Positions 521 to 20,000 of a stretch of 20,000 bases of DNA are shown one piece after another. The notes beneath the pieces are model-generated. The model made no database searches. It was not told where the DNA came from and was given only the letters and a program-made list of their open reading frames with translations. Source of the DNA: Chiloscyllium plagiosum (taxonomy: Eukaryota); the NCBI RefSeq assembly GCF_004010195.1, contig NC_057754.1, positions 8,703,790 through 8,723,789 of the forward strand, given 5' to 3'. The translations under genes and the position numbers were made by a program. Numbering within the stretch: the stretch's first letter is position 1; each line of letters begins with the position of its first letter.

Positions 521-744
521 ATTAAGGGGAGTGACCTGTAGCAAGTTGCCAGGATCCAGTGGCCTACATTCTATGATTTGTTTAAAAACGAGCTGCAGAC
601 CGAGTGGAATCATTGATTTCAATCTACTACTGCCCCCAAGACCTGCCTCAGCTGCCGCTCCCAAGATGACAGGCGGCCAGTCATTCCCTCGCCGGGTGAC
701 AGCTAGTTACCTGGGTAACCTTGGCCCTACTCTGAGAAAGCTAA

Positions 745-1240
745 AGATCACACAACACCAACTTATAGTCCAACAAGTTTATTTGTAAGTACTAGCTTTC
801 GGAGCACTGCTCCTTCATCAGGTAACTAGTGGGACAGGATCATAAGACACAGTATTTATAGTAAAAAATCAGTGTCAAACAACTGGTGCAATGCATTGAA
901 CAAATCTAGATTGCTGTTAAGCCTTTAATCACTTAGAATGGGGATGCAAGTTTCAATTGATTAATACGTAAATCCCAGAACTTCTTTCAAGTCACAGTCC
1001 TGAGGTTTTATTTAAAAAGTGACATCTCAACCCAAACAATGATTTAAAGGTATGAGGTTAGATTCTGTCTGTTTTCCAATCTTGAATCAGACTGGTTCTA
1101 TTTCCAAAGTAGGAATTTATAAGATTGACTACTATAAGACTGACTGCCTACGGACTGTGCACTTTTTGAACAAAATAGAATTATCTGCAAATACAAATTC
1201 ACCCCATAGACTTACGTGTACCTACACGTGTGTATGTCAG
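745..1240 (-). mobile_element. Penelope pLTR/3' tail copy in inverted orientation at the 5' side of the element
   Basis: Reverse complement aligns by eye with 5080-5548 (e.g. gtaaatcccagaacttctttcaagtcacagtcctgag vs ctcaggactgtgacttgaaagaagttctgggatttac). Contains a hammerhead core at 790-824. Confidence 0.85.
790..824 (-). ncRNA. Minimal type I hammerhead ribozyme motif (PLE family A)
   Basis: Minus strand: tac-CUGAUGA-A-GGAGC-agu-GCUCC-GAAA-GC-UA-gta. Intact core boxes, 5-bp stem II, tac/gta stem I, palindromic AGCU stem III. Confidence 0.8.
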
Positions 1241-1284
1241 TGAGCGCGCATGAACGAAAGAGAGAGCGCGCCCAACAAAGTTGC

Positions 1285-1646
1285 CAATATGCCAACATTT
1301 TCATGCACAAACTAAAACAAGATTTCTTTGCTGCAGAGGACTTCTAGCCAACAGTGTACACTAGATACATTGATGACATTTTCTTCTTCAGGACCCATGG
1401 CAAGGAATCACTGAAACAACTACACTGATATCACTATGTTTCATCCCACCACCAGACTTAATATGGACTACTCTTTAGAGTCAGTCTCATTCTTGGACAC
1501 ACCCATCTCCATCAAGGATGGACACTTCCGTACCTGACTCTACCGCAAACCCAAGGATAACCTCACGATGCTGCACTTCTCTAGCTTCCACCCGAAACAT
1601 ATTAAAACAGCCATCCCCTACAGACAAGCCCCATGCATGAAGATCT
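1285..1646 (+). mobile_element. Penelope-like reverse transcriptase fragment (domains 4-7 and thumb), decayed
   Basis: QYANIFMHKLKQDFF..YTRYIDDIFF (YIDD at 1366-1377)..SVSFLD..LYRKPKDNLTMLHFSSFHPKHIKTAIPY: typical PLE RT/thumb motifs, with stops and a frameshift. Confidence 0.9.
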
Positions 1647-2451
1647 AGACCTATCTACAAATATATTGTACTATGGGCATCCCTGGTAAGCCTTGTACCC
1701 TTTCAGATAGATCACGTAGTAAAAGAGACAAAGGGGGGATGGTATCCTTCACTAACAATTTGTTTCTAGAAACCCATAATAAAATATTTGGAGAGGATGT
1801 AGTAGTTTGTTATGCCCTTACTTCAGCAAGAGACTCCCTGACCCCTTTTATCCTTCCAAGTCCTATCATGGGGGTATAGAATAGTTCTAAAGTATTTACA
1901 GGATTATGGACGTCCTCCAATAAACTCACGCTATCCTATCCAAATTGCTACAATGGTAAGGGATGAGGGTGCAGTTACGTAAAAGTGCCTAAAATTATCC
2001 CCTGTGCTATGATAAAATGTATCAGTCATCATTGAGGGAGTGGACTCCGCCAATAAAGCTATGACTGGCACATCATAATCACCAATGAAACATATCAGTC
2101 TTAAAATTAAGTGGAATCAAACCAGTCTGAAACACAAAAAAAATTATAATGTTATCTTCCTCCATATTAAACTGATTTGAAATCGAATAAGGTTGGCTTT
2201 CATGTAAGGATAAAAGAGATTAATTAGAAACTGACAGTAAGGCAGTCGTGACCTGTAAAAAGATCAGGAGTTAATACTTTATAATCACTGAAGAATCCTT
2301 AACCTTAAAAGAAATCATGTTAAATTTCCAAAATGCAAATCAGATTCAAAGCATTCCCGGATCTCATGCTCCAGGGAACAAAGCACAAACATTCAATCAC
2401 CAACAAACAAACAACCGAATCACAAAGGGTTAAACTTTCTACTAGCTGTAC

Positions 2452-2453
<2 letters not shown>

Positions 2454-2494
<41 letters not shown>

Positions 2495-2505
2495 ACACAC
2501 ACACA
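2454..2505. repeat. (CT)n(CA)n microsatellite
   Basis: Direct reading of the sequence. Confidence 0.95.
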
Positions 2506-2677
2506 GTTTTTAGCTTGGGAGTTAAGTCTCAAAACTCCTGGCTGTGGCACAACATTGCTTAACCAAGTGTGCAAGAATTGTACCACTGGCCAGCCTTATC
2601 TTTTAAAAATCGAGAACAACGGCCACCCTCCATATTTCATAAACAAAGAACAATCACCAAAATGAACAAAAAAGCAA

Positions 2678-2706
2678 CAAGCCAAGCCAAGCCAAGCCAA
2701 GCCAAA
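2678..2706. repeat. (GCCAA)n pentanucleotide repeat, about 5 units
   Basis: caagccaagccaagccaagccaagccaaa. Confidence 0.9.
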
Positions 2707-2717
2707 CAGATACAACA

Positions 2718-2962
2718 GGTTCTGGATCAGTGGTGCTGGAACAGCACAGCAGTTCAGGCAGCATCCGAGGAGCAGTAAAATCGGCGTTTCGGGCGAAAGC
2801 CCTTCATCAGGAATAAAGGTAGAGAGCCTGAAGGGTGGAGAGATAAGCTAGAGGAGGGTGGGGGTGGGGAGAAAGTAGCATAGAGTAGGTGAGTGGGGGA
2901 GGGGATGAAGATGAGGAAATGACCTGGGAGTTGCAGTGGGAGGGGGACTCCCTGAGATTCTG
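2718..2962 (-). mobile_element. PLE family B 3'-tail insertion with hammerhead motif, nested in the retroviral segment
   Basis: Near-identical to 19828-19995. Hammerhead at about 2779-2814 (CUGAUGA-AGGGC-uuuc-GCCC-GAAA-CGCC; cleavage triplet mutated). Possible short TSD tacaaca at 2711-2717 and 2964-2970. Confidence 0.8.
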
Positions 2963-3009
2963 GTACAACACACAACAAAACTAATGAGTAGCCAACCATC
3001 GAACCTTTG

Positions 3010-4608
3010 GCTAGGGAAAAGGGATTATTTTGTGAGAAACTAGTGATTTGTCCTCTGCCTTTTGCTTGTGGAGGAGGGTGACTGTAATCAGGAGGTTTAC
3101 CCCAAGTGTCATAGGAGTTCTGAGGGTAATTCTCATGAAAACTTCCTTGGTTCCCCTGTGTGGCCCTTCGAGGGCAATTAGAGGTCCAATGGAAGGGACT
3201 GCCGGCAGTAAGACAATTTCGAGTCGGGCGATCACGAGCCCAGTGAGATAGGCTGTTACAATTAAAACAGGCCAGGAACGGATACCGAGGGAGGGTCCCT
3301 CTGCCACACCCACGACTGCAGCCTGGAATGGATACAGGGTCACTACTATTAAGCACGGGTAGTTGTTGAGGTGTCTCCTCTTGGACTACAAATTCTGATT
3401 TTACACGGATTGGTGGTCTGTCTTCACTCTGCTGATTCCACAAGGCATTAATAGAACGATGGAGTTGATTAGGGGTGGCTTCAACCCAGTCTAGATTGTT
3501 TGTTTTGACTGCTGTAACTACAGAGGGCAGCAGGCAGTTTAATAGCATTGAATTATACTGAGCATTAATAGCATTTAAATTCCAAACCCGATCGCCGGAA
3601 TAGGACTCATAACATTCTCTAAAACATTCCAAATATTGCTCAGCAGACTCCTTATTTTTAGGGTGAAGCTCAAGGATTCGAGTAAAGTCAATGGGCCTTG
3701 TTAATATAGTAGATGCAACAGCGAGATTATTATCTTGTCGCTGTTGTTCCTGGACTACAGCATTAGCGAAAGCAGTAAAATTATTGTGACCAATACATTC
3801 AGTAAAACAGGCATATTCAGAGCGGGTAAGCACTTACTGCAGAAGGTCTTTTGCATTACCATTATAAACTTTAATTGTGGTGTCTAAAAAAATCAATGAA
3901 CTGCTGGGGAGTCTTGTGGTGGTCCAGTGCATTACTGAGGATGGATATAATTTCATGGGGCTTCCAAGGACAATAAATACTGAGTGGTATTAGGGACAGC
4001 AGCTTCTGGGTTTGGTAGTTCCTTTACAGGGAACATTCCTAATGTGGGTGCTTTGCCTTCCGCATTTTCAGAAGAGGAATTTAAAGGGGTTTCTAATTGC
4101 TGCACGAGTCATTTACTTGAGGATCTGTGCTATTTCAATCTTCGCTGACTGGCAACAGGGTTAGTGAACTGGGGAGGGGGTGGGGGGACAGGAGTTTGCT
4201 TACCAGCCCCTAGTGACTTCTTCTTTTGTTTCTGTTGGTGTTTTGCTTGAGCGCATTCATTTTTGACGTCTTGAATAGATTTCAGACACCATCAGCTGTT
4301 AGTTCAATTCCCAATTTAGTGGCAGTATACTGCCTTGAACATAAAACAGATTCTTTATGAGTTTCACCACAATATAGTCTCCACAGTCTAATTAGTTTCT
4401 GTGTCTTGGAATTCTTCTTCCTTTGCCAAATCAGTTGCTGGGCTGATTTGATCAATTGAATATTTTTAAGGCCACTGAGTGGCCACTGCTCATCACCCAA
4501 TGCTTTAGTTAGGGTGGCAGAAAGTTTTCAGAAGTCTTTGGATTTTTCCAGAAACTTCTCACATATTTTTACTAACGGTGAAGATGGATCTTCCGTCTTA
4601 TCTATGTG
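3010..4608 (-). pseudogene. gag: Endogenous retrovirus gag, decayed (MA, proline-rich region, CA, NC with two zinc knuckles); class I/epsilon-like appearance
   Basis: MA-like ..GDEQWPLSG..KLIRLWRLY (4282-4600); PPPPP near 4170-4190; CA N-terminus YCPWKPHEIISIL..KTPQQFIDF; MHR-like FTRILELHPKNKESAEQYLECFRECYESYSG (about 3595-3687); knuckles CFNCNSLSHWARDR (3228-3269) and CLTAGSPFHWTSNC (3174-3215), each missing one Cys; several stops and frameshifts. Confidence 0.85.
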
Positions 4609-5590
4609 ATGCATGGTATATTGGTGAGACCAAACAGACGCTACAACAGATGAATGGACACTGCACAACAATCGCCAGCCAGGGATGTTCCCTTGAGTCG
4701 TGGAACACTTCTGTGGTCAAGGACATTCAGTCTCGAATCTTCAAGTGACCTTCCTCCAAGGCGGGCTTCAGGATATATAACAATGCAGTCACCAACAGAG
4801 GGGGATAGCCAAGTTTGGTACCTTGGGTTCATATCACAAGTTTGGTACCTTGGGTTCATTTCCTGAAGAAGGGCTAATGCCCGAAACGTCGATTCTCCTG
4901 TTCCCTAGATGCTGCCTGACCTGCTGCGCTTCTCCAGCAACACATTTCCATTTCATATCACACTACAAGTCACCCCACTAGATTATATACTCCCTCTGTC
5001 ACTCACACACCCTCTCTCATATACACATGCTCTCTCTCTCTCTCACAGGCATATACTGTCACACTCACGCACACACATAGACACACATATATGTGTCTAT
5101 GGGGTAAATTTGCATTTGCAGATACATTCTATTTTGTTCAAAAAGCACACAATCTGTAAACAGTCCATGCGACATTTTGTAAATTCCTATTTGGAAATAG
5201 AACCAGTCTGACTCAAGGTTGGAATACAAACCTCACACCTTTAATGCATTGTCTGAGCTGAGATGTCACTCAATGTTATATAAGACCTTAAGTTATCTCA
5301 GGACTGTGACTTGAAAGAAGTTCTGGGATTTACATATTAATCAATCGAAACCTGCATCCCATTCTAAGTGATTAAAGTCTTGAACAACAATCTAGATTTG
5401 GTCAATACCTCGCAGCAGTTGTGTGACACTTGGAATTTTTGCTATAAATCCTGTTTGCTATGATCCTGCCCCACTCGCTACCTGACCATGGAGCAGCGCT
5501 CCCAAAGATAGTGATTCCAAATAAACCTGTTGGACTGGTGTTGTGTGCTGTTGAACACAGTCCAGCCCCAGTCCAACACCTCCATCTCAT
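4609..5590 (+). mobile_element. Penelope-like GIY-YIG endonuclease fragment plus 3' tail/pLTR (family A)
   Basis: AWYIGETKQTLQQ (YIG at 4617-4625)..MNGH..EHFCGQGHS..IAKFGT, followed by a CT/CA-rich tract and the pLTR with a degenerate hammerhead at about 5479-5513 (CUGACCA..GGAGC/GCUCC..CAAAGAUA). Confidence 0.88.
4858..4950 (+). mobile_element. Short PLE family B tail insertion beginning at an intact hammerhead motif
   Basis: ttc-CUGAAGA-AGGGC-uaau-GCCC-GAAA-CGUC-gatt (core 4863-4890), then gatgctgcctgacctgctg tail; TSD ttcatatcaca at 4828-4838 and 4952-4962. Confidence 0.8.
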
Positions 5591-6040
5591 NNNNNNNNNN
5601 NNNNNNNNNNNNNNNNNNNNNNNNNNNNNNNNNNNNNNNNNNNNNNNNNNNNNNNNNNNNNNNNNNNNNNNNNNNNNNNNNNNNNNNNNNNNNNNNNNNN
5701 NNNNNNNNNNNNNNNNNNNNNNNNNNNNNNNNNNNNNNNNNNNNNNNNNNNNNNNNNNNNNNNNNNNNNNNNNNNNNNNNNNNNNNNNNNNNNNNNNNNN
5801 NNNNNNNNNNNNNNNNNNNNNNNNNNNNNNNNNNNNNNNNNNNNNNNNNNNNNNNNNNNNNNNNNNNNNNNNNNNNNNNNNNNNNNNNNNNNNNNNNNNN
5901 NNNNNNNNNNNNNNNNNNNNNNNNNNNNNNNNNNNNNNNNNNNNNNNNNNNNNNNNNNNNNNNNNNNNNNNNNNNNNNNNNNNNNNNNNNNNNNNNNNNN
6001 NNNNNNNNNNNNNNNNNNNNNNNNNNNNNNNNNNNNNNNN
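5591..6040. other. Assembly gap (450 N)
   Basis: Run of N. Confidence 1.
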
Positions 6041-6127
6041 GGAGAAGGAGGCGGGGGACCCGCAGGCTTCACACAGGGACTTTCGGGGGGCCCAGGCATC
6101 CCCCTCGGGAGGTGATAAAACTGCCAT
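6041..6127 (-). CDS. Candidate first coding exon of an unidentified gene (CxxC motif), truncated by the gap
   Basis: ATG at 6127-6125 gives MAVLSPPEGDAWAPRKSLCEACGSPASFS running into the gap, directly downstream of the CpG-island motifs. Confidence 0.35.
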
Positions 6128-6130
6128 CCG

Positions 6131-6157
6131 CCCATTCCCATTCCCATTCCCATTCCC
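6131..6157. repeat. (CCCATT)4 hexanucleotide repeat
   Basis: cccattcccattcccattcccattccc. Confidence 0.9.
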
Positions 6158-6789
6158 AACCTGTCTCGCTATCTCCTCCAGCCGCTCCAACTCGGGTTGC
6201 CTCCACGACTGACACTGAGCATGCGCGGGATGCAGCCCGCGCCTGCGCTCTGTCCTCCCGAGCCCATTGATCGGAATCTGGCGCAGCGCGAGCGTTCCGG
6301 AGCGACGTTCTCGTGGTGATCCCTTCAGCTGGTGACTGACAGTTTAGTGCTTTGGTCCCCCAGTTGATATTGGGACTACAGGCACAATTCACAACTTCGG
6401 TGGAAACCAAAATATGTAGACCCTCCTCACTGTTGCAATTTGTATAGTTCACCCTCCATCACCTTCACCGGCAATTTCAGTTTGGAAAAAGTTACAAAGT
6501 GATACTCCGCTAAGACCAATGCTCATACCACAGTCATTCATAACTTAGCTTAATAATATGAACGTGTGGCGAAGTAAATCAATATCAAAGTTATACAGGT
6601 GATATCAAGCTGAAGTAATATGCCTAACACTGGGGAAAAACACAAATGAAAAGAACAAAACGTTTAAAATAGTTGCAGACTGGATAGTAAATTGATTTTG
6701 CATAAAAAACACTGCTACAATGCACTTTGATACGAAATGAATAAACATCACCAACACCCTTTCACTGACAGTTTGGGTTTCTACAAGTT

Positions 6790-7005
6790 CAGGCGAAAGT
6801 GAGGACTGCAGATGCTGGAGATTAGAGTCGAGAGTGTGGTGCTGGAAAAGCACATAGGTCAGGCTGCATCCAAGGGGCAGGAAAATCAACATTTCAGGCA
6901 AAAAAGCCCTTGACTGCTGATGAAGGGCCTTTGCCCGAAACGTCGATTTTCCTGCTGCTTGGATGCTGCCTGACCTGCTGTGTTTTCCCAGCACCACACT
7001 CTCGA
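6790..7005. mobile_element. Fold-back (head-to-head) PLE family B tail insertion with hammerhead and 12-bp TSD
   Basis: TSD tttctacaagtt at 6778-6789 and 7006-7017; inverted arms about 6828-6911 and 6923-7005; core CUGAUGA-AGGGC-cuuu-GCCC-GAAA-CGUC at 6917-6944 (+). Confidence 0.88.
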
Positions 7006-7089
7006 TTTCTACAAGTTGACTCAGCTCCTGACCTCATTACAGCCTTGGTCCAAACATGACCATAAAATCAATGCTCCAGAAATAAAGTG

Positions 7090-10502: not shown

Positions 10503-10917
10503 TCACATATGGACTTGCTGATGTCTCAGCAGTTTAGCTGACTCTGTGAATACTTTCTGACAGAGAGCAGGCAAACGATTTCTCTCCACTGTGAGTGTGT
10601 TGATGTACCAAAAGATTCAAGGACTTCACGAATCCCTTCCCACATACAGAACAAGTGAATGCTGTCTCCCCAGTGTGAACACGCCTGTGTGTATTGAGGT
10701 CAGATGAAGATCTGAACCTCCTTGCACAGGAAGTGCAGTTGAATGGCCTCTGCTCAGCACGAATCCGATCCTGTAGCATGAGGCAGGCAGACTTATGAAA
10801 TCCTTTCCCACACACAGAGCAGGTGAACGGTTTCTCCCCAGAATGAACTCGCTGATGTGCAATCAGGGCAGATGACTGCATGAAGCTCTTTTCACAGACA
10901 GTACAACTGAACATCAA
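10503..10917 (-). pseudogene. C2H2 (Kruppel-type) zinc-finger array, about 5 fingers, probably pseudogenised and 5'-truncated
   Basis: CTVC..HQRVHSGEKPFTCSVC linkers; finger 2 lacks both His; finger 5 is frameshifted (shifted frame continues QKVFTESAKLLRHQQVHM* with TGA at 10505-10503); upstream abuts a CR1 fragment. Confidence 0.8.
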
Positions 10918-10989
10918 GCTCCCTCACTTTCTCAACATCTCTTGGCGGCCTCCCATTTATTGTGTTTTTTTTTGCTTTGTTTAATGAAA

Positions 10990-11720
10990 CACCTCTCATT
11001 TCTCCAGGTGGAATTCCACTTACCACTTTTTGCTCATCTGACTAGTTCATTGATATCTTTCCTGAATATTATAGTTACTCTCCTCACTATCAACTAAATG
11101 GCCTTCTTTTTATGTTTTCTGCAAATGTTTTTTATCATCCTACTACATAAAAGTCCAGATTGTTCATATGTTCCACAAAAAAGCAGAGGACCTAGCACAG
11201 AGCTCTGCAGAAGGTCACTGGAATCAGTCTACAAGGCACAAGAAACAATATTGAGAGTTTATGCCTGAAACGTCAATTCTCCTGCTACTCGGATGCCGCC
11301 TGACCTGCTGTGCTTTTCCAACACCACATTCTCAACTCTGATCTCCAGCATCTGCAGTCCTCACTTTCTCCCATAAGAAACAATATCTTTGGTTTCCTGC
11401 CACTGAGCCAATTTTGTATCCCATTTGCTATGTTGACCTGCATCTCATGGGTCGAGTTTTTATTTTGTTTTACAATGGTTTGCCATGTGAACTTCGCCAA
11501 AATGTTATGTCGACCACATCAATCTACCTTATTACTTTCTCAAAAAATTATGTTAAGTTAGTTAGACATGATCTTCCCTTAACACATTTATGCTAACTGT
11601 CCTGAATTATTCCATGCCTTTCCAAGTGATGATTTGTCCTGTTCTCCTGTTTCTTTCAATAGTTTGGGGTGCATTTCATCTGGCACTGGTGACTTGTTGC
11701 ATTTTGAAAGATAGTAATCC
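10990..11720 (-). mobile_element. CR1 LINE RT fragment, decayed, interrupted by a PLE tail insertion
   Basis: Minus strand resembles the GKSCLTNL..FFEKV segment; WIQNWLSGRK-like text in the ORF track (GIQNWLSGRKPK). Confidence 0.7.
11252..11374 (+). mobile_element. 123-bp PLE family B tail insertion, truncated inside the hammerhead, with 12-bp TSD
   Basis: TSD aagaaacaatat at 11240-11251 and 11375-11386; begins ..ttatgcctGAAACGTC and ends catctgcagtcctcactttctcc. Confidence 0.85.
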
Positions 11721-11958: not shown

Positions 11959-12035
11959 ATATCGCCAAGTTTTCAGATGACGCAAAAATAAGTGGGAAGG
12001 CAAATAGAATGACAAAGGAGCCTACGGACAGCTTG

Positions 12036-12167
12036 TGGGAGAAAGTGTGGACTGCAGATGCTGGACATCAGAGTTGATTCCTGATGAAAGACTCTTGCCC
12101 GAAATGTCGATTTTCTTGTTCCTCGGATGCTGCCTGACCTGCTGTGCTTTTCCAGCACCACGCTCGA
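12036..12167 (+). mobile_element. PLE family B tail insertion with an inverted 5' segment and decayed hammerhead
   Basis: 12037-12077 is the reverse complement of the family's 3' terminus (compare 11333-11372); 12081-12108 is CUGAUGA..GAAAUGUC with disrupted stem II. Confidence 0.75.
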
Positions 12168-14289: not shown

Positions 14290-15192
14290 CGCTTTATAAG
14301 GTTGAGGCTTTGCATAGGCCACCTCTACTTAGATCTGATGAGGTATTGGGACCAGATGAGTTATCCAAGGATACTGATGGAAGTGAACATGGATATTACA
14401 GTGGCACTATCCATGACTTTTCAGTTTTGCTGAGACATGAGGGTAGTACTAGAGAATTGCAAATGTTCAAAAAAAAGGTTAGGTGAGCACCTGGAGATCA
14501 GTCAGTTTAACTTCAGTGGTGGCTAAATTCCTCAAAGCAAGTTGTTTTAGGAATAAGTAATTCTGCAGATGGTTTTATTCATTTTGTTTGTATGACCCTT
14601 TATTGGTCAGTACATTGAGTATCAGAGATGGGAGGTCATATTGAGATTGTACATGACGTTGGTTAGGCCACTTTTGGAACTGCTTTCAGTTCTGATCTGT
14701 CTGCTGTGGGAAAGATGTTGTGAAACTTGAAAGGGTTCAGAAAAGATTTACAAAGATGGTGCCAGGGTTGGAGGGTTTGAGCTGTAGAGGGAAGCTGAAC
14801 AGGCTGGGACTATTTTTCCCTAGAGCGTCAGAGGCTGAGAGGTGACCTTTTAGAGATTTTTTAAATCTTGAGGGGCTTGGATAGGGTGAATAGCCAAGGT
14901 CTTTTTCCTAGGGTAGTGGAGATCAGTTTAAGTTGAAAGGGGAAAGATTTACAGGGGACGTGAGGGGAAACTTTTTCACGCAGAGCCTGGTGCATGTATG
15001 GAATGAGATGCCCGAAGTGGTGGTGGAGGCTGGGACAATTTACAACACTTAAAAGGCATCTAAAAAGGTACCTGAATAGGAATAGAGGGTTACAGGCCAA
15101 ATGCTCATAAATGGGACTGGATTAATTTACGATATCTGTTGGGCATGGATGAGTTGGACTGTTTCAGTGGTTAACATCTCGCGGACTCTGAT
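14290..15192 (+). mobile_element. CR1 LINE fragments ending in a 3' end
   Basis: GPDELSKDT-like RT start; ILRLYMTLVRPLLE; KLERVQKRFTKMVPGLEGLSCRGKLNRLGL; RLRGDL; ends gactctgatg. Confidence 0.85.
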
Positions 15193-15437
15193 GTTTTCAA
15201 AACAAAGAATTGGGATTTTGGAGTTACTGACAAGGCCAGTGAATTGGAGGCTGGGACAATTTACAACATTTAAAAGGCATCTAAAAAGGTACCTGAATAA
15301 GAATAGAGGGTTACAGGCCAACTGCTCGTAAATGGGACTGGATTAATTGGACTGTTTCAGTGGTTAACATCTCGCGGACTCTGATGTTTTCAAAGCAAAG
15401 AATTGGGATTTTGGAGTTACTGACAAGGCCAGTGAAT
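15024..15437. repeat. Local tandem duplication (221-bp and 193-bp units)
   Basis: 15024-15244 and 15245-15437 differ by a 28-bp deletion and about 5 substitutions. Confidence 0.95.
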
Positions 15438-16050: not shown

Positions 16051-16066
16051 GCATGAACCTCTGATG

Positions 16067-16112
16067 CTGGATTAGTGGTGCTGGAAGAGCACAGCAGTTC
16101 TGGCAGCATCCA
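16067..16112 (-). mobile_element. 46-bp PLE family B tail fragment with perfect 14-bp TSD
   Basis: TSD atgaacctctgatg at 16053-16066 and 16113-16126; insert matches 2723-2766 and 19830-19873. Confidence 0.85.
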
Positions 16113-16134
16113 ATGAACCTCTGATGGGTGATAG

Positions 16135-16732
16135 TAAGAGGGATGGATCTGTGGTGTTGCAGCTGGACAGGACATTGGTTAAGCCACTTTTGGAATGCTG
16201 CCTGCAGTTCTGGTCTGCCTGCTATTGAAAGGATGTTGTGAAACTTGAAAGGGTTCAGAAAAGATTTTAAAGGATGTTGTCACGGTTGAAAGATTTGAGC
16301 TATAGGGAGAGGCTGAATAGGCTGGGGTTGTTTTCCTTGGAGCGTTGGAGGCTGAGGGGTGACTTTTTAGAGGTTTATAGAATCATGAGGGGCATGGATA
16401 GGGTAAATAAATAAAGTATTTTCCATGGGGTGGGGGCGTCCAGAACTGGAGGTCTATGGTGAGAGGGGAAAGATATAAAAGGGATCTAAGGGACAACTTT
16501 TTCACACAGAGGGTGGTGTGTGTATGGAATGAGCTGCCAGAGGAAGTGGTGAAGGCTGGTATAATGACAACATTTTAAAAAGGCATCTGGATGGGTATGT
16601 GAATTGGAAGGGTTTAGAGGGATATAGGCCAGATGCTGACAAATGGGACTGGATTAGGTTAGGATATTTGGTCGGCATGGAAGGGTTGGACCGAAGGGTC
16701 TGCTTCCGTCCTGTACATCTCAATGACTCAAT
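16135..16732 (+). mobile_element. CR1 (HER1-like) LINE 3' end
   Basis: TLVKPLLECCLQFWSACY*KDVVKLERVQKRF; FFTQRVVCVWNELPEEVV; 3' UTR ggttggaccgaagggtctg..tctcaatgactcaatg. Confidence 0.9.
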
Positions 16733-18334: not shown

Positions 18335-18580
18335 TACATCTGGACAGGTATATGAATAGGCGAAAGTGGGCACTGCAGATGCTGGAGATCAGAGTCAAAA
18401 TTAGAGTGGTGCTGGCAGGTCAGGCAGCATCCGAAGAGCAGGAAAAGCAACGTTTTAGGCAAAAGCCCTACATCAGGAATATGTGAACAGGAAGAAGTTA
18501 GAGGGATATGGGCCAAGTGCTGGCATGGGCGAGTTGGACCGAAGGGTCTGTTTCCGTGTCGTACATCTCTATGGTTCTGA
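18335..18580 (+). mobile_element. CR1 3' end interrupted by a PLE tail insertion
   Basis: HLDRYMNR..KLEGYGPSAG and 3' UTR gttggaccgaagggtctgtttccgtg. Confidence 0.8.
18361..18480 (-). mobile_element. PLE family B tail insertion starting at a decayed hammerhead
   Basis: Minus strand attc-CUGAUGU-AGGGC-uuuu-GCCU-AAAACGUU; degenerate TSD tatatgaatagg (18349-18360) / tatgtgaacagg (18480-18491). Confidence 0.8.
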
Positions 18581-19584: not shown

Positions 19585-19792
19585 ACACCACCTGCAATTT
19601 CTCCTCCAAGCCTCTCATCATGCCGACTTGGAAACTTATTGCCGTTCCTTCACTGTCATTGGGTCGAAATCCTAGAATTCTCTCCCTAAGTGCATTATGG
19701 GGTCTTCAGCACATGGCCTGCAGTGGTTCAAGAAGGCAGCTCACCGCCACCTTTATTAGGGCAACGTGGAATGGGCAATAAATGCTGGCCAG
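19585..19792 (+). mobile_element. 3' end of the second CR1-group LINE family
   Basis: caccacctgcaa..gacttggaaa.ttattgccgttccttca..ggttcaagaaggcagctcacc..gggcaataaatgctggcc. Confidence 0.75.
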
Positions 19793-20000
19793 GTAAAAAC
19801 AATGACTGCAGATGCTGGAAACCAGATTTTGGATCAGTGGTGCTGGAAGAGCACAGCAGATCAGGCAGCATCCAAGGAGTAGCGAAATCGACGTTTCGGG
19901 CAAAAGCCCTTCATCAGGAATAAAGGCAGAGAGCCTGAAGGGTGGAGAGATAAGTGAGAGGAGGGTGGGGGTGCGCTGAAAGTAGCATAGAGTACAATAG
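19792..20000 (-). mobile_element. PLE family B 3' tail with intact hammerhead motif (continues beyond the window)
   Basis: Minus strand attc-CUGAUGA-AGGGC-uuuu-GCCC-GAAA-CGUC-gatt at 19886-19921; near-identical to 2722-2886. Confidence 0.88.

Follow-up and report, generated by a model that had tools for sequence, protein, structure and literature searches.

Foreign DNA with a retroviral gag piece in the middle of a decayed Penelope-like element of Chiloscyllium plagiosum: probably a DNA-repair patch

How did a piece of antisense retroviral gag come to lie between the reverse transcriptase (RT) and the endonuclease (EN) of a Penelope-like element? The window analysed is a 20,000-nt stretch of the shark Chiloscyllium plagiosum (GCF_004010195.1, NC_057754.1, 8,703,790-8,723,789, forward strand), and all coordinates refer to it. 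The unit is one decayed Penelope-like element in which ~2.97 kb of foreign DNA replaces ~0.52-0.54 kb in mid-element. It has no intact coding capacity and is a dead element. The first-pass annotation had described an inverted arm, RT/thumb, foreign block, endonuclease and pLTR, and this layout is borne out by self-alignment and protein relatives. The block, which it had described as foreign sequence including gag, is indeed foreign and is composite, with a later mini-element nested inside. Our preferred reading is that the block is probably a one-off DNA-repair patch, a doubly truncated, non-classical insertion of an endogenous retrovirus (ERV) with target deletion. The parts of the unit are as follows.

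737-1270, minus strand: inverted Penelope arm (pLTR), truncated at its 5' end; the core 749-1211 is alignable and the inner part, to ~1270, is rich in microsatellites; both limits were taken from the sequence
1279-1646, plus strand: 5'-truncated Penelope ORF, end of the RT core (YIDD) and thumb; 2 stops and 1 frameshift in 115 codons
1647-2717, no strand assigned: multi-copy DNA of 1.07 kb, presumably the retroviral part downstream of gag
2718-2963, minus strand: later nested, hammerhead-bearing Penelope-type mini-element of 246 nt; core motif 2787-2810, 90.7% to 19823-19994
3009-4054, minus strand: epsilon-like retroviral gag, capsid and nucleocapsid part; C-terminus complete (~3018)
4055-4610, minus strand: putative 5' part of gag, matrix-like as judged from position only; paralogous-DNA homology stops at 4610
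4611-4822, plus strand: GIY-YIG endonuclease remnant starting with AWYIG; 1 stop, 1 frameshift and 2 one-codon gaps in 70 codons
4856-4947, plus strand: second nested hammerhead mini-element, at the ORF end; core motif 4863-4886, beside a short local duplication (4810-4858)
4948-5590, plus strand: direct pLTR and tail, running into an assembly gap (5591-6040, 450 N)

The host element has a pLTR with an adjacent inverted, truncated copy and a hammerhead motif. In the self-comparison of the window, arm 749-1211 aligned with inverted 5095-5547 at 78.8% over 480 columns (E 5e-113), with 13.3% substitutions (K2P 14.8%) and 10 gap openings. A minus-strand hammerhead core motif (797-821) is intact in the left arm; its counterpart in the right arm is decayed. 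All 39 protein relatives matched the RT/thumb piece within 1268-1639, and 10 of the 39 also matched the endonuclease piece; in relative P0015, residues 257-372 correspond to 1285-1630 and residues 555-627 to 4611-4822. Thus a Penelope-type RT is followed by a C-terminal GIY-YIG domain in the same proteins and in the right order, with the ORF broken. The two halves are collinear parts of one family and not of different families, an origin that the first-pass annotation had considered fatal to its proposal. On its sequence the element is Neptune/Nematis-type, endonuclease-bearing and Penelope-like, the two types being treated jointly here. A CX2-5CxxC motif is a feature of the RT-EN linker of such elements (PMC8557442). 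CX4CxxC occurs in six of the seven relatives with both anchors, and the linker region itself is deleted in the window copy. The linker had been noted as absent, and the 177-182 codons between the anchors in the seven relatives put the missing ORF at ~515-537 nt, as estimated from protein relatives and not from an empty site. The endonuclease resumes, as had been noted, at its YIG motif (A-W-Y-I-G at 4611), without the GIY half and two cysteines.

The minus-strand gag is confirmed by an open frame of 281 stop-free codons (2990-3833), a length reached by none of 500 shuffles, and by 26 protein relatives at E<=0.001 spanning 4054-3018. It is disrupted by two frameshifts (~3982 and ~3885), one in-frame gap (~3846) and one stop codon (~3834). 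A BFVD structure search gave only three matches at E<=0.001, the Gag proteins of WEHV-2, WDSV and a Rhinella marina ERV. Gag_p30 was matched by 6 of the 18 relatives scanned, all under the curated cut-off, and superposition on the MLV capsid C-terminal domain gave Z 10.1 with 86 residues aligned at rmsd 2.4, level with Copia and PEG10. A retroviral capsid fold and a CCHC knuckle, with gamma/epsilon viruses nearest, place the predicted protein in class I as an epsilon-like Gag. Ty3/gypsy gag, suggested by an atlas search (Retrotrans_gag clusters, 0.93), was set aside for the Gag_p30 matches and the epsilon-type fold matches. Capsid fold and zinc knuckle are shared with the epsilonretrovirus-like ERVs of fish and sharks (WDSV, WEHV; CmiERV lineages II/III, PMC4422223); unlike these, the shark cassette holds gag only and has no pol for placement in an RT phylogeny. 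Gag is putatively cut at its N-terminus, as had been proposed; no protein relative covers 4055-4610, though paralogous DNA extends to 4610. An atlas search of 4285-4527 returned no family and low recognition. No pol or env was recognised in the cassette in searches of limited reach. Comparison of gag with longer proteins yielded none of 476 candidates, and no gag locus turned up among 83 stretches of viral contigs and 72 of metagenome contigs. The window contains no second piece of the cassette, nor any retroviral remainder to the left of the unit or beyond the gap.

Within the multi-copy stretch 1647-2717 no protease or pol and no significant ORF was found (best frame P 0.12-0.16). The contig figures for paralogues given here and below refer to matches listed only, drawn from larger tables. 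Among the matches listed, 17-35 contigs per run differ at 1866, and pieces lie over 2029-2411. The summed contig depth of 2058-2431, considered as a possible LTR, is ~7- to >50-fold that of gag, depth being no copy number, and its profile is not a flat block, with lows at 2041 and 2412. Since the stretch has no assigned identity, it may contain a single LTR. The plus strand at 1650-2100 has cysteines and an RSKR-like motif, which we took to be env-like. This was not supported: the frame is at chance level (P 0.12 for stops, 0.16 for the longest run), none of 117 candidates emerged at 143-455 aa, there was no Pfam match in 15 stop-read frames, and the best PDB matches had E 1 and 0.57 (one frame of each strand). 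A candidate env start on the minus strand, whose frame lacks a strong hydrophobic stretch, is likewise unsupported. The mini-element at 2718-2963 is flanked by the 7-nt direct repeat TACAACA (2711-2717 and 2964-2970).

The left junction lies between 1639 and 1646, with an uncertainty of 7 nt. On the right, retroviral homology extends to 4610 and Penelope codons start at 4611; a few letters before 4611 fit both partners, and the overlap at 4605-4610 is imperfect. The right end of the insert thus falls within the start of gag, and the left end shows neither an LTR terminus nor a tail in the sequence. There is no LTR pair in the window and no recognisable integrase-type duplication of 4-6 nt, the two marks of an integrase-made provirus, and paralogous internal sequence reaches 4610. 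The earlier statement that the junctions have neither LTR nor target site duplication (TSD) holds for the LTR pair; a single LTR may lie in 1647-2717, and a direct 7-nt repeat, ATGCATG, does occur at both junctions (1633-1639 and 4609-4615; chance ~0.03 in direct, 0.05 in either orientation). Its core is the Penelope element's own sequence at both breakpoints. The repeat is borderline, and we rejected it as a TSD, which would require a prior Penelope deletion at exactly that spot; the chance is 0.03-0.05. Both retroviral paralogue contigs reaching 4610 among the matches listed (2 of 2) continue in non-Penelope letters (541 and 6 letters). None of 32 pieces among the matches listed bridges a junction; read support therefore extends neither to the junctions themselves nor to a mobilised chimera. 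None of the 15 joints listed involves a junction (1759 further joints exist). Protein P0033, which seemed to cross the left junction as a Penelope protein, proved to be ordinary Penelope sequence with a chance extension.

The anatomy shows that a Neptune/Nematis-type element first inserted as an inverted arm, a 5'-truncated ORF and a pLTR, which is the standard layout of Penelope family insertions. We propose that a double-strand break in the RT-EN linker then lost ~0.53 kb at its ends, and that ~2.7 kb from the interior of a multi-copy epsilon-like ERV served to close it. The template might have been cDNA, RNA or a genomic ERV copy, and end joining would have sealed the junctions at short microhomologies. 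A mini-element, whose insertion is evident from its own 7-nt duplication, would have entered the retroviral piece either at the locus or in the donor. In a single event, a break-repair patch would account for both truncated ends, the lack of LTR and integrase duplication, the random orientation of the insert and the loss of target sequence. The insert has the features of a non-classical insertion (both ends truncated, no classical TSD, no poly(A), target deletion), and such an insertion at a double-strand break probably accounts for every feature in one step, by a route documented for ERVs (PMC3625200) that the first-pass annotation had left aside.

Among 29 human-specific HERV-K loci, four are non-classical insertions, for which repair of double-strand breaks is held responsible (Shin et al. 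2013, PMC3625200). They share with the shark locus both truncated ends, the lack of a classical TSD, the target deletion and perhaps short junction overlaps, and one of them, K130, is of similar size. Donor (an epsilon-like shark ERV) and target (a Penelope ORF) set the shark locus apart from the human cases, of which three out of four measure <150 nt (PMC3625200). Class 2 templated insertions (PMC5110952) and endonuclease-independent L1 insertions (PMC1920257) are also similar in that a patch from a distant locus lacks TSD and poly(A) and is accompanied by deletion and by joint microhomology, a feature that the shark locus may share. Experimental templated patches measure 73-414 bp (PMC5110952), whereas the shark patch is ~2.7 kb and old. 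The patch looks like a type already known from human endogenous retroviruses, and a new mobile element is not the favoured reading. No paper on a Penelope-ERV chimera was found in literature searches, which reached few subscription journals.

The first-pass annotation had proposed capture by template switching during Penelope reverse transcription. A fuller form of this, in which the Penelope RT jumped to an epsilon-like ERV, copied ~2.7 kb antisense and jumped back, the hybrid perhaps being copied on in trans, is in our view unlikely. Two premises of that annotation stand: ordinary integration cannot give this structure, and both halves come from a single Penelope family. Capture as a one-off event, by the Penelope RT alone, is unlikely as well. 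Here the RT would leave its own RNA at 4611, copy ~2.7 kb of retroviral nucleic acid (tentatively antisense RNA, minus-strand cDNA or genomic DNA) and return 0.53 kb further on. The fold-back arm indicates that templates were changed during insertion, and Penelope elements of Adineta vaga have captured spacers, a 1.5-kb RT-EN insert and a gene mobilised in trans; jumps between templates and the use of antisense templates were put forward in that study (PMC3846280). These captures resemble the shark unit in the order of inverted pLTR, ORF and pLTR and in the foreign DNA inside, once between RT and EN. In Adineta vaga, however, an open ORF is retained, or else the pLTRs enclose the cargo, with TSD and empty site both demonstrated (PMC3846280), whereas the shark locus lost 0.53 kb of ORF. 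Capture also requires the RT to switch twice and to use an antisense or DNA donor, and it is weakened because the retroviral piece is antisense to the Penelope element; the only Penelope protein examined in vitro, that of the anole, copied a sense RNA, and the accessible part of that report describes no switch (PMC11167929). The two listed paralogues that reach 4610, which lack the Penelope junction, count against capture too.

Among the matches listed, 22 of 24 gag-region paralogue pieces differ by 10.5-19.5%, and disablements (5 in 185 Penelope codons vs 3 in 338 gag codons) show no significant difference (P 0.11). With 13.3% substitutions between the arms, the two partners are about equally decayed, and age therefore does not decide between the readings. 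Against the repair patch, this equal apparent age suits capture at insertion too, and a repair polymerase and the Penelope RT cannot be told apart by any test.

A normal provirus may instead have integrated into the linker, two later deletions each removing one LTR with adjacent Penelope and viral sequence. Nested insertion is common, as the two nested mini-elements of the unit illustrate, the Penelope copy has several indels, and short junction overlaps suit deletion ends too. This history is nevertheless improbable, since two deletions would have had to occur independently, each spanning one LTR and several hundred bases, and neither an LTR remnant nor a 4-6 nt duplication is recognisable. 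That the pieces come from different Penelope copies, or were wrongly joined in the assembly, is quite improbable. The arms are only 79% identical and gapped, the family is very abundant, a 450-N gap adjoins and no contig bridges the junctions among the matches listed, but the halves are of the same family, on the same strand, in the right order and non-overlapping. Furthermore, no long shared repeat lies at the junctions to mislead an assembler, and a second organism has the left flank and arm boundary (252-814), its gag piece differing by 5%, the same as the flank. A hybrid arisen once and copied in trans by Penelope proteins, with the window copy 5'-truncated, is very improbable: every part is multi-copy, most paralogue pieces stop short of the junctions and could be sisters, and trans-mobilisation between pLTRs is known (PMC3846280), but neither of the two listed pieces reaching 4610 has a Penelope continuation, none of the 39 Penelope proteins extends into the cassette, no junction is among the 15 listed joints, and the earlier argument that unique junctions count against a mobilised chimera applies, from two contigs only among the matches listed.

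If the repair-patch reading is true, this would be a clear shark case of an ERV piece serving as a repair patch, with no function of its own, and LTR-less retroviral fragments need not be deletion relics. Finding its junctions at other loci, or an excess of such mid-ORF replacements in Penelope copies over other repeats, would give the locus greater weight. Either result would point to a telomerase-related RT that switches template over kilobases and returns, a step in the Penelope cycle left open by in vitro work (PMC11167929). If capture and copying in trans were both true, a non-LTR enzyme would move retroviral gag through a vertebrate genome as an antisense cassette.

A locus scan for Penelope gave one 27% relative (L001), which was not used. 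An Rfam search gave two chance miRNA-like matches, both outside the Penelope/retroviral unit. No RNA holder was among the entries listed. Right of the gap, 6041-6350 is a CpG island (GC 0.63, CpG o/e 0.78).

The Penelope-like element is split between its reverse transcriptase (RT) and endonuclease pieces by about 2.97 kb of other DNA, and the linker that normally joins the two pieces is lost. From left to right the locus contains:

749-1211, inverted Penelope arm
1285-1630, RT piece, residues 257-372 of the Penelope protein relative P0015
about 2.97 kb of other DNA, including the minus-strand gag
2718-2963, hammerhead mini-element within this DNA, 246 nt, beyond gag, TACAACA on each flank
4611-4822, endonuclease piece, residues 555-627 of P0015
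5095-5547, the part of the direct pLTR that aligns with the arm; the pLTR ends in a 450-N gap from 5591

The arm alignment (78.8% identity, 480 columns) and the relatives matching both pieces confirmed the layout in the first-pass annotation, namely inverted pLTR, RT, foreign DNA with minus-strand gag, endonuclease and pLTR. The RT-piece search gave 39 proteins from 40 candidates, with named relatives in Chiloscyllium, Hemiscyllium, Heptranchias and Scyliorhinus, which points to a shark host; all 39 match the RT piece and 10 also match the endonuclease piece. An inverted truncated pLTR, ORF and pLTR are described as the usual layout of a single Penelope insertion (PMC3846280). In the seven proteins having both anchors, the RT-to-endonuclease spacing is 177-182 codons, and six of them carry a CX4CxxC motif in between, a linker motif reported to characterise Neptune and Nematis (PMC8557442), two Penelope clades. 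With this spacing and 9-16 nt retained past 1630, the Penelope loss is approximately 515-537 nt.

At the right junction, paralogous retroviral DNA can be aligned through 4610, and from 4611 onward the codons are those of Penelope; the preceding six letters also resemble the Penelope codons predicted from relatives, an imperfect overlap. At the left junction, Penelope similarity is clear through 1639 and possibly 1646 with a one-codon gap. The first-pass annotation saw no integrase-type target duplication, and this holds. The 7-nt repeat ATGCATG (1633-1639 and 4609-4615) is not counted as one; seven shared letters arise between two random 25-nt windows in 2.7% of 5000 draws (5.1% in either orientation), and each copy has a core that is native to Penelope.

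We moderately favour the ERV piece being a repair patch, i.e. a non-classical insertion with target deletion, as reported for HERV-K (PMC3625200). A double-strand break in Penelope would have been filled from an ERV template, with loss of the linker. Class 2 templated insertions (PMC5110952), endonuclease-independent L1 insertions (PMC1920257) and the 'deletion bridges' seen in human de novo variation (10.1101/2024.04.03.587925) are described as events of the same class. No paper on a Penelope-ERV hybrid was found in the literature searched, and PMC8672886 adds nothing, but this one dead locus represents a type of event that is already known.

Capture by template switching of the Penelope RT during insertion, proposed earlier, has a precedent in kind (PMC3846280) but is unlikely, as the donor would have to be antisense or DNA and the RT would have to jump back, and the anole Penelope protein is reported to have copied sense RNA (PMC11167929). 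The same protein nicked and extended both strands (PMC11167929). The arm divergence (13.3% of 436 sites with gaps removed, K2P 14.8%) is comparable to the differences of the nearest paralogues (11-14%). The 185 Penelope codons carry 5 stops and frameshifts and the 338 codons of gag carry 3 (P 0.11; 4055-4610, with no protein relative, is excluded). Age allows capture at insertion and does not favour it, because a patch templated by a genomic ERV carries the age of its donor. A nested provirus followed by two deletions is rather less probable still, since three events are required; as noted in the first pass, no LTR is seen at either junction, and neither an LTR pair nor an additional retroviral piece occurs within the window.

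Two Penelope copies or an artefact would be a quite improbable explanation. Assembly error is unlikely because the halves are collinear in one family and the joints lack a long repeat. Contigs from 4 of the 24 listed runs were aligned at 80% likeness, the listing covering 32 of 343,951 pieces and, for joints, 15 of 1,774; none of the 32 listed bridges either Penelope/ERV junction, which weighs neither way. Contigs of organism A differ from the window at 3 positions in 780 nt and 1 in 331 nt, and by sequence A is the same species or a very close one. A contig of organism B spans the left flank and arm boundary (252-814; 30 letters differ, 17 gaps), and a gag piece of B (3779-4098) differs by 5%, comparable to its flank. 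Because B has both at like difference, Penelope and the ERV piece, their adjacency in B aside, are probably older than the A/B split. A mobilised chimera is very improbable.

The donor ERV family is multi-copy. In 2962-4610, 22 of 24 listed pieces, several of them one locus in two runs, differ by 10.5-19.5% and two by 5%. Among the matches listed, two pieces reach 4610, where alignment ends, followed by 541 and 6 unlike letters. In two contigs of the gag region the depth, a weak measure, is about 6-7x that of the single-copy flank, hinting at a younger ERV subfamily of near-identical copies. The minus-strand frame at 2990-3833 is stop-free for 281 codons, equalled by 0 of 500 shuffles. HMMER found 26 gag relatives (closest 71% and 67% identity) spanning 4054-3018, and the gag C-terminus is complete because they share the terminal motif of the window frame. 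Gag_p30 was matched by 6 of the 18 relatives scanned, all under the curated cut-off. The structure model (mean pLDDT 64), in which roughly the first 140 residues are reliable, shows the fold of a capsid C-terminal domain, its score for MLV (Z 10.1, rmsd 2.4 over 86 aligned residues) being on a par with Copia (10.4) and PEG10 (10.3). Against viral models just three matches had E<=0.001, the Gag of WEHV-2, WDSV and a Rhinella ERV. We read the gag as epsilon-like; it has no pol, hence no phylogenetic placement. Epsilon-like ERVs are reported from a chondrichthyan (PMC4422223). In 1647-2717, past the intact gag terminus, neither protease nor pol is recognised, so the donor was probably pol-less and non-autonomous. 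Sequence, frame and structure comparisons gave no identity for 1647-2717, which seems to be shared more widely than gag.

The mini-element at 2718-2963 is a later, nested insertion and differs by 9.3% from the copy at 19823-19994. Hammerhead-bearing copies are numerous (also 4856-4947, 6835-7009, 11240-11371, 12032-12165, 16063-16118, 18357-18481 and 19790-19994), one is a fold-back pair (6856-6976), and the core motif has 9 matches in the window versus 2.2 expected. A short tandem duplication (4810-4858), lying where the endonuclease frame ends, adjoins the second nested mini-element.

A CpG island at 6041-6350 (GC 0.63, CpG o/e 0.78) is probably the promoter or first exon of a host gene; if that gene is on the minus strand, the chimeric locus would lie in its first intron. 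An open frame with C2H2 zinc-finger repeats (10534-10923, minus strand) is a candidate gene or pseudogene. Old fragments at 14680-15437 and 16198-16691, which we take to be LINE-like, come with a local duplication of 104-105 nt at 95-96% identity.
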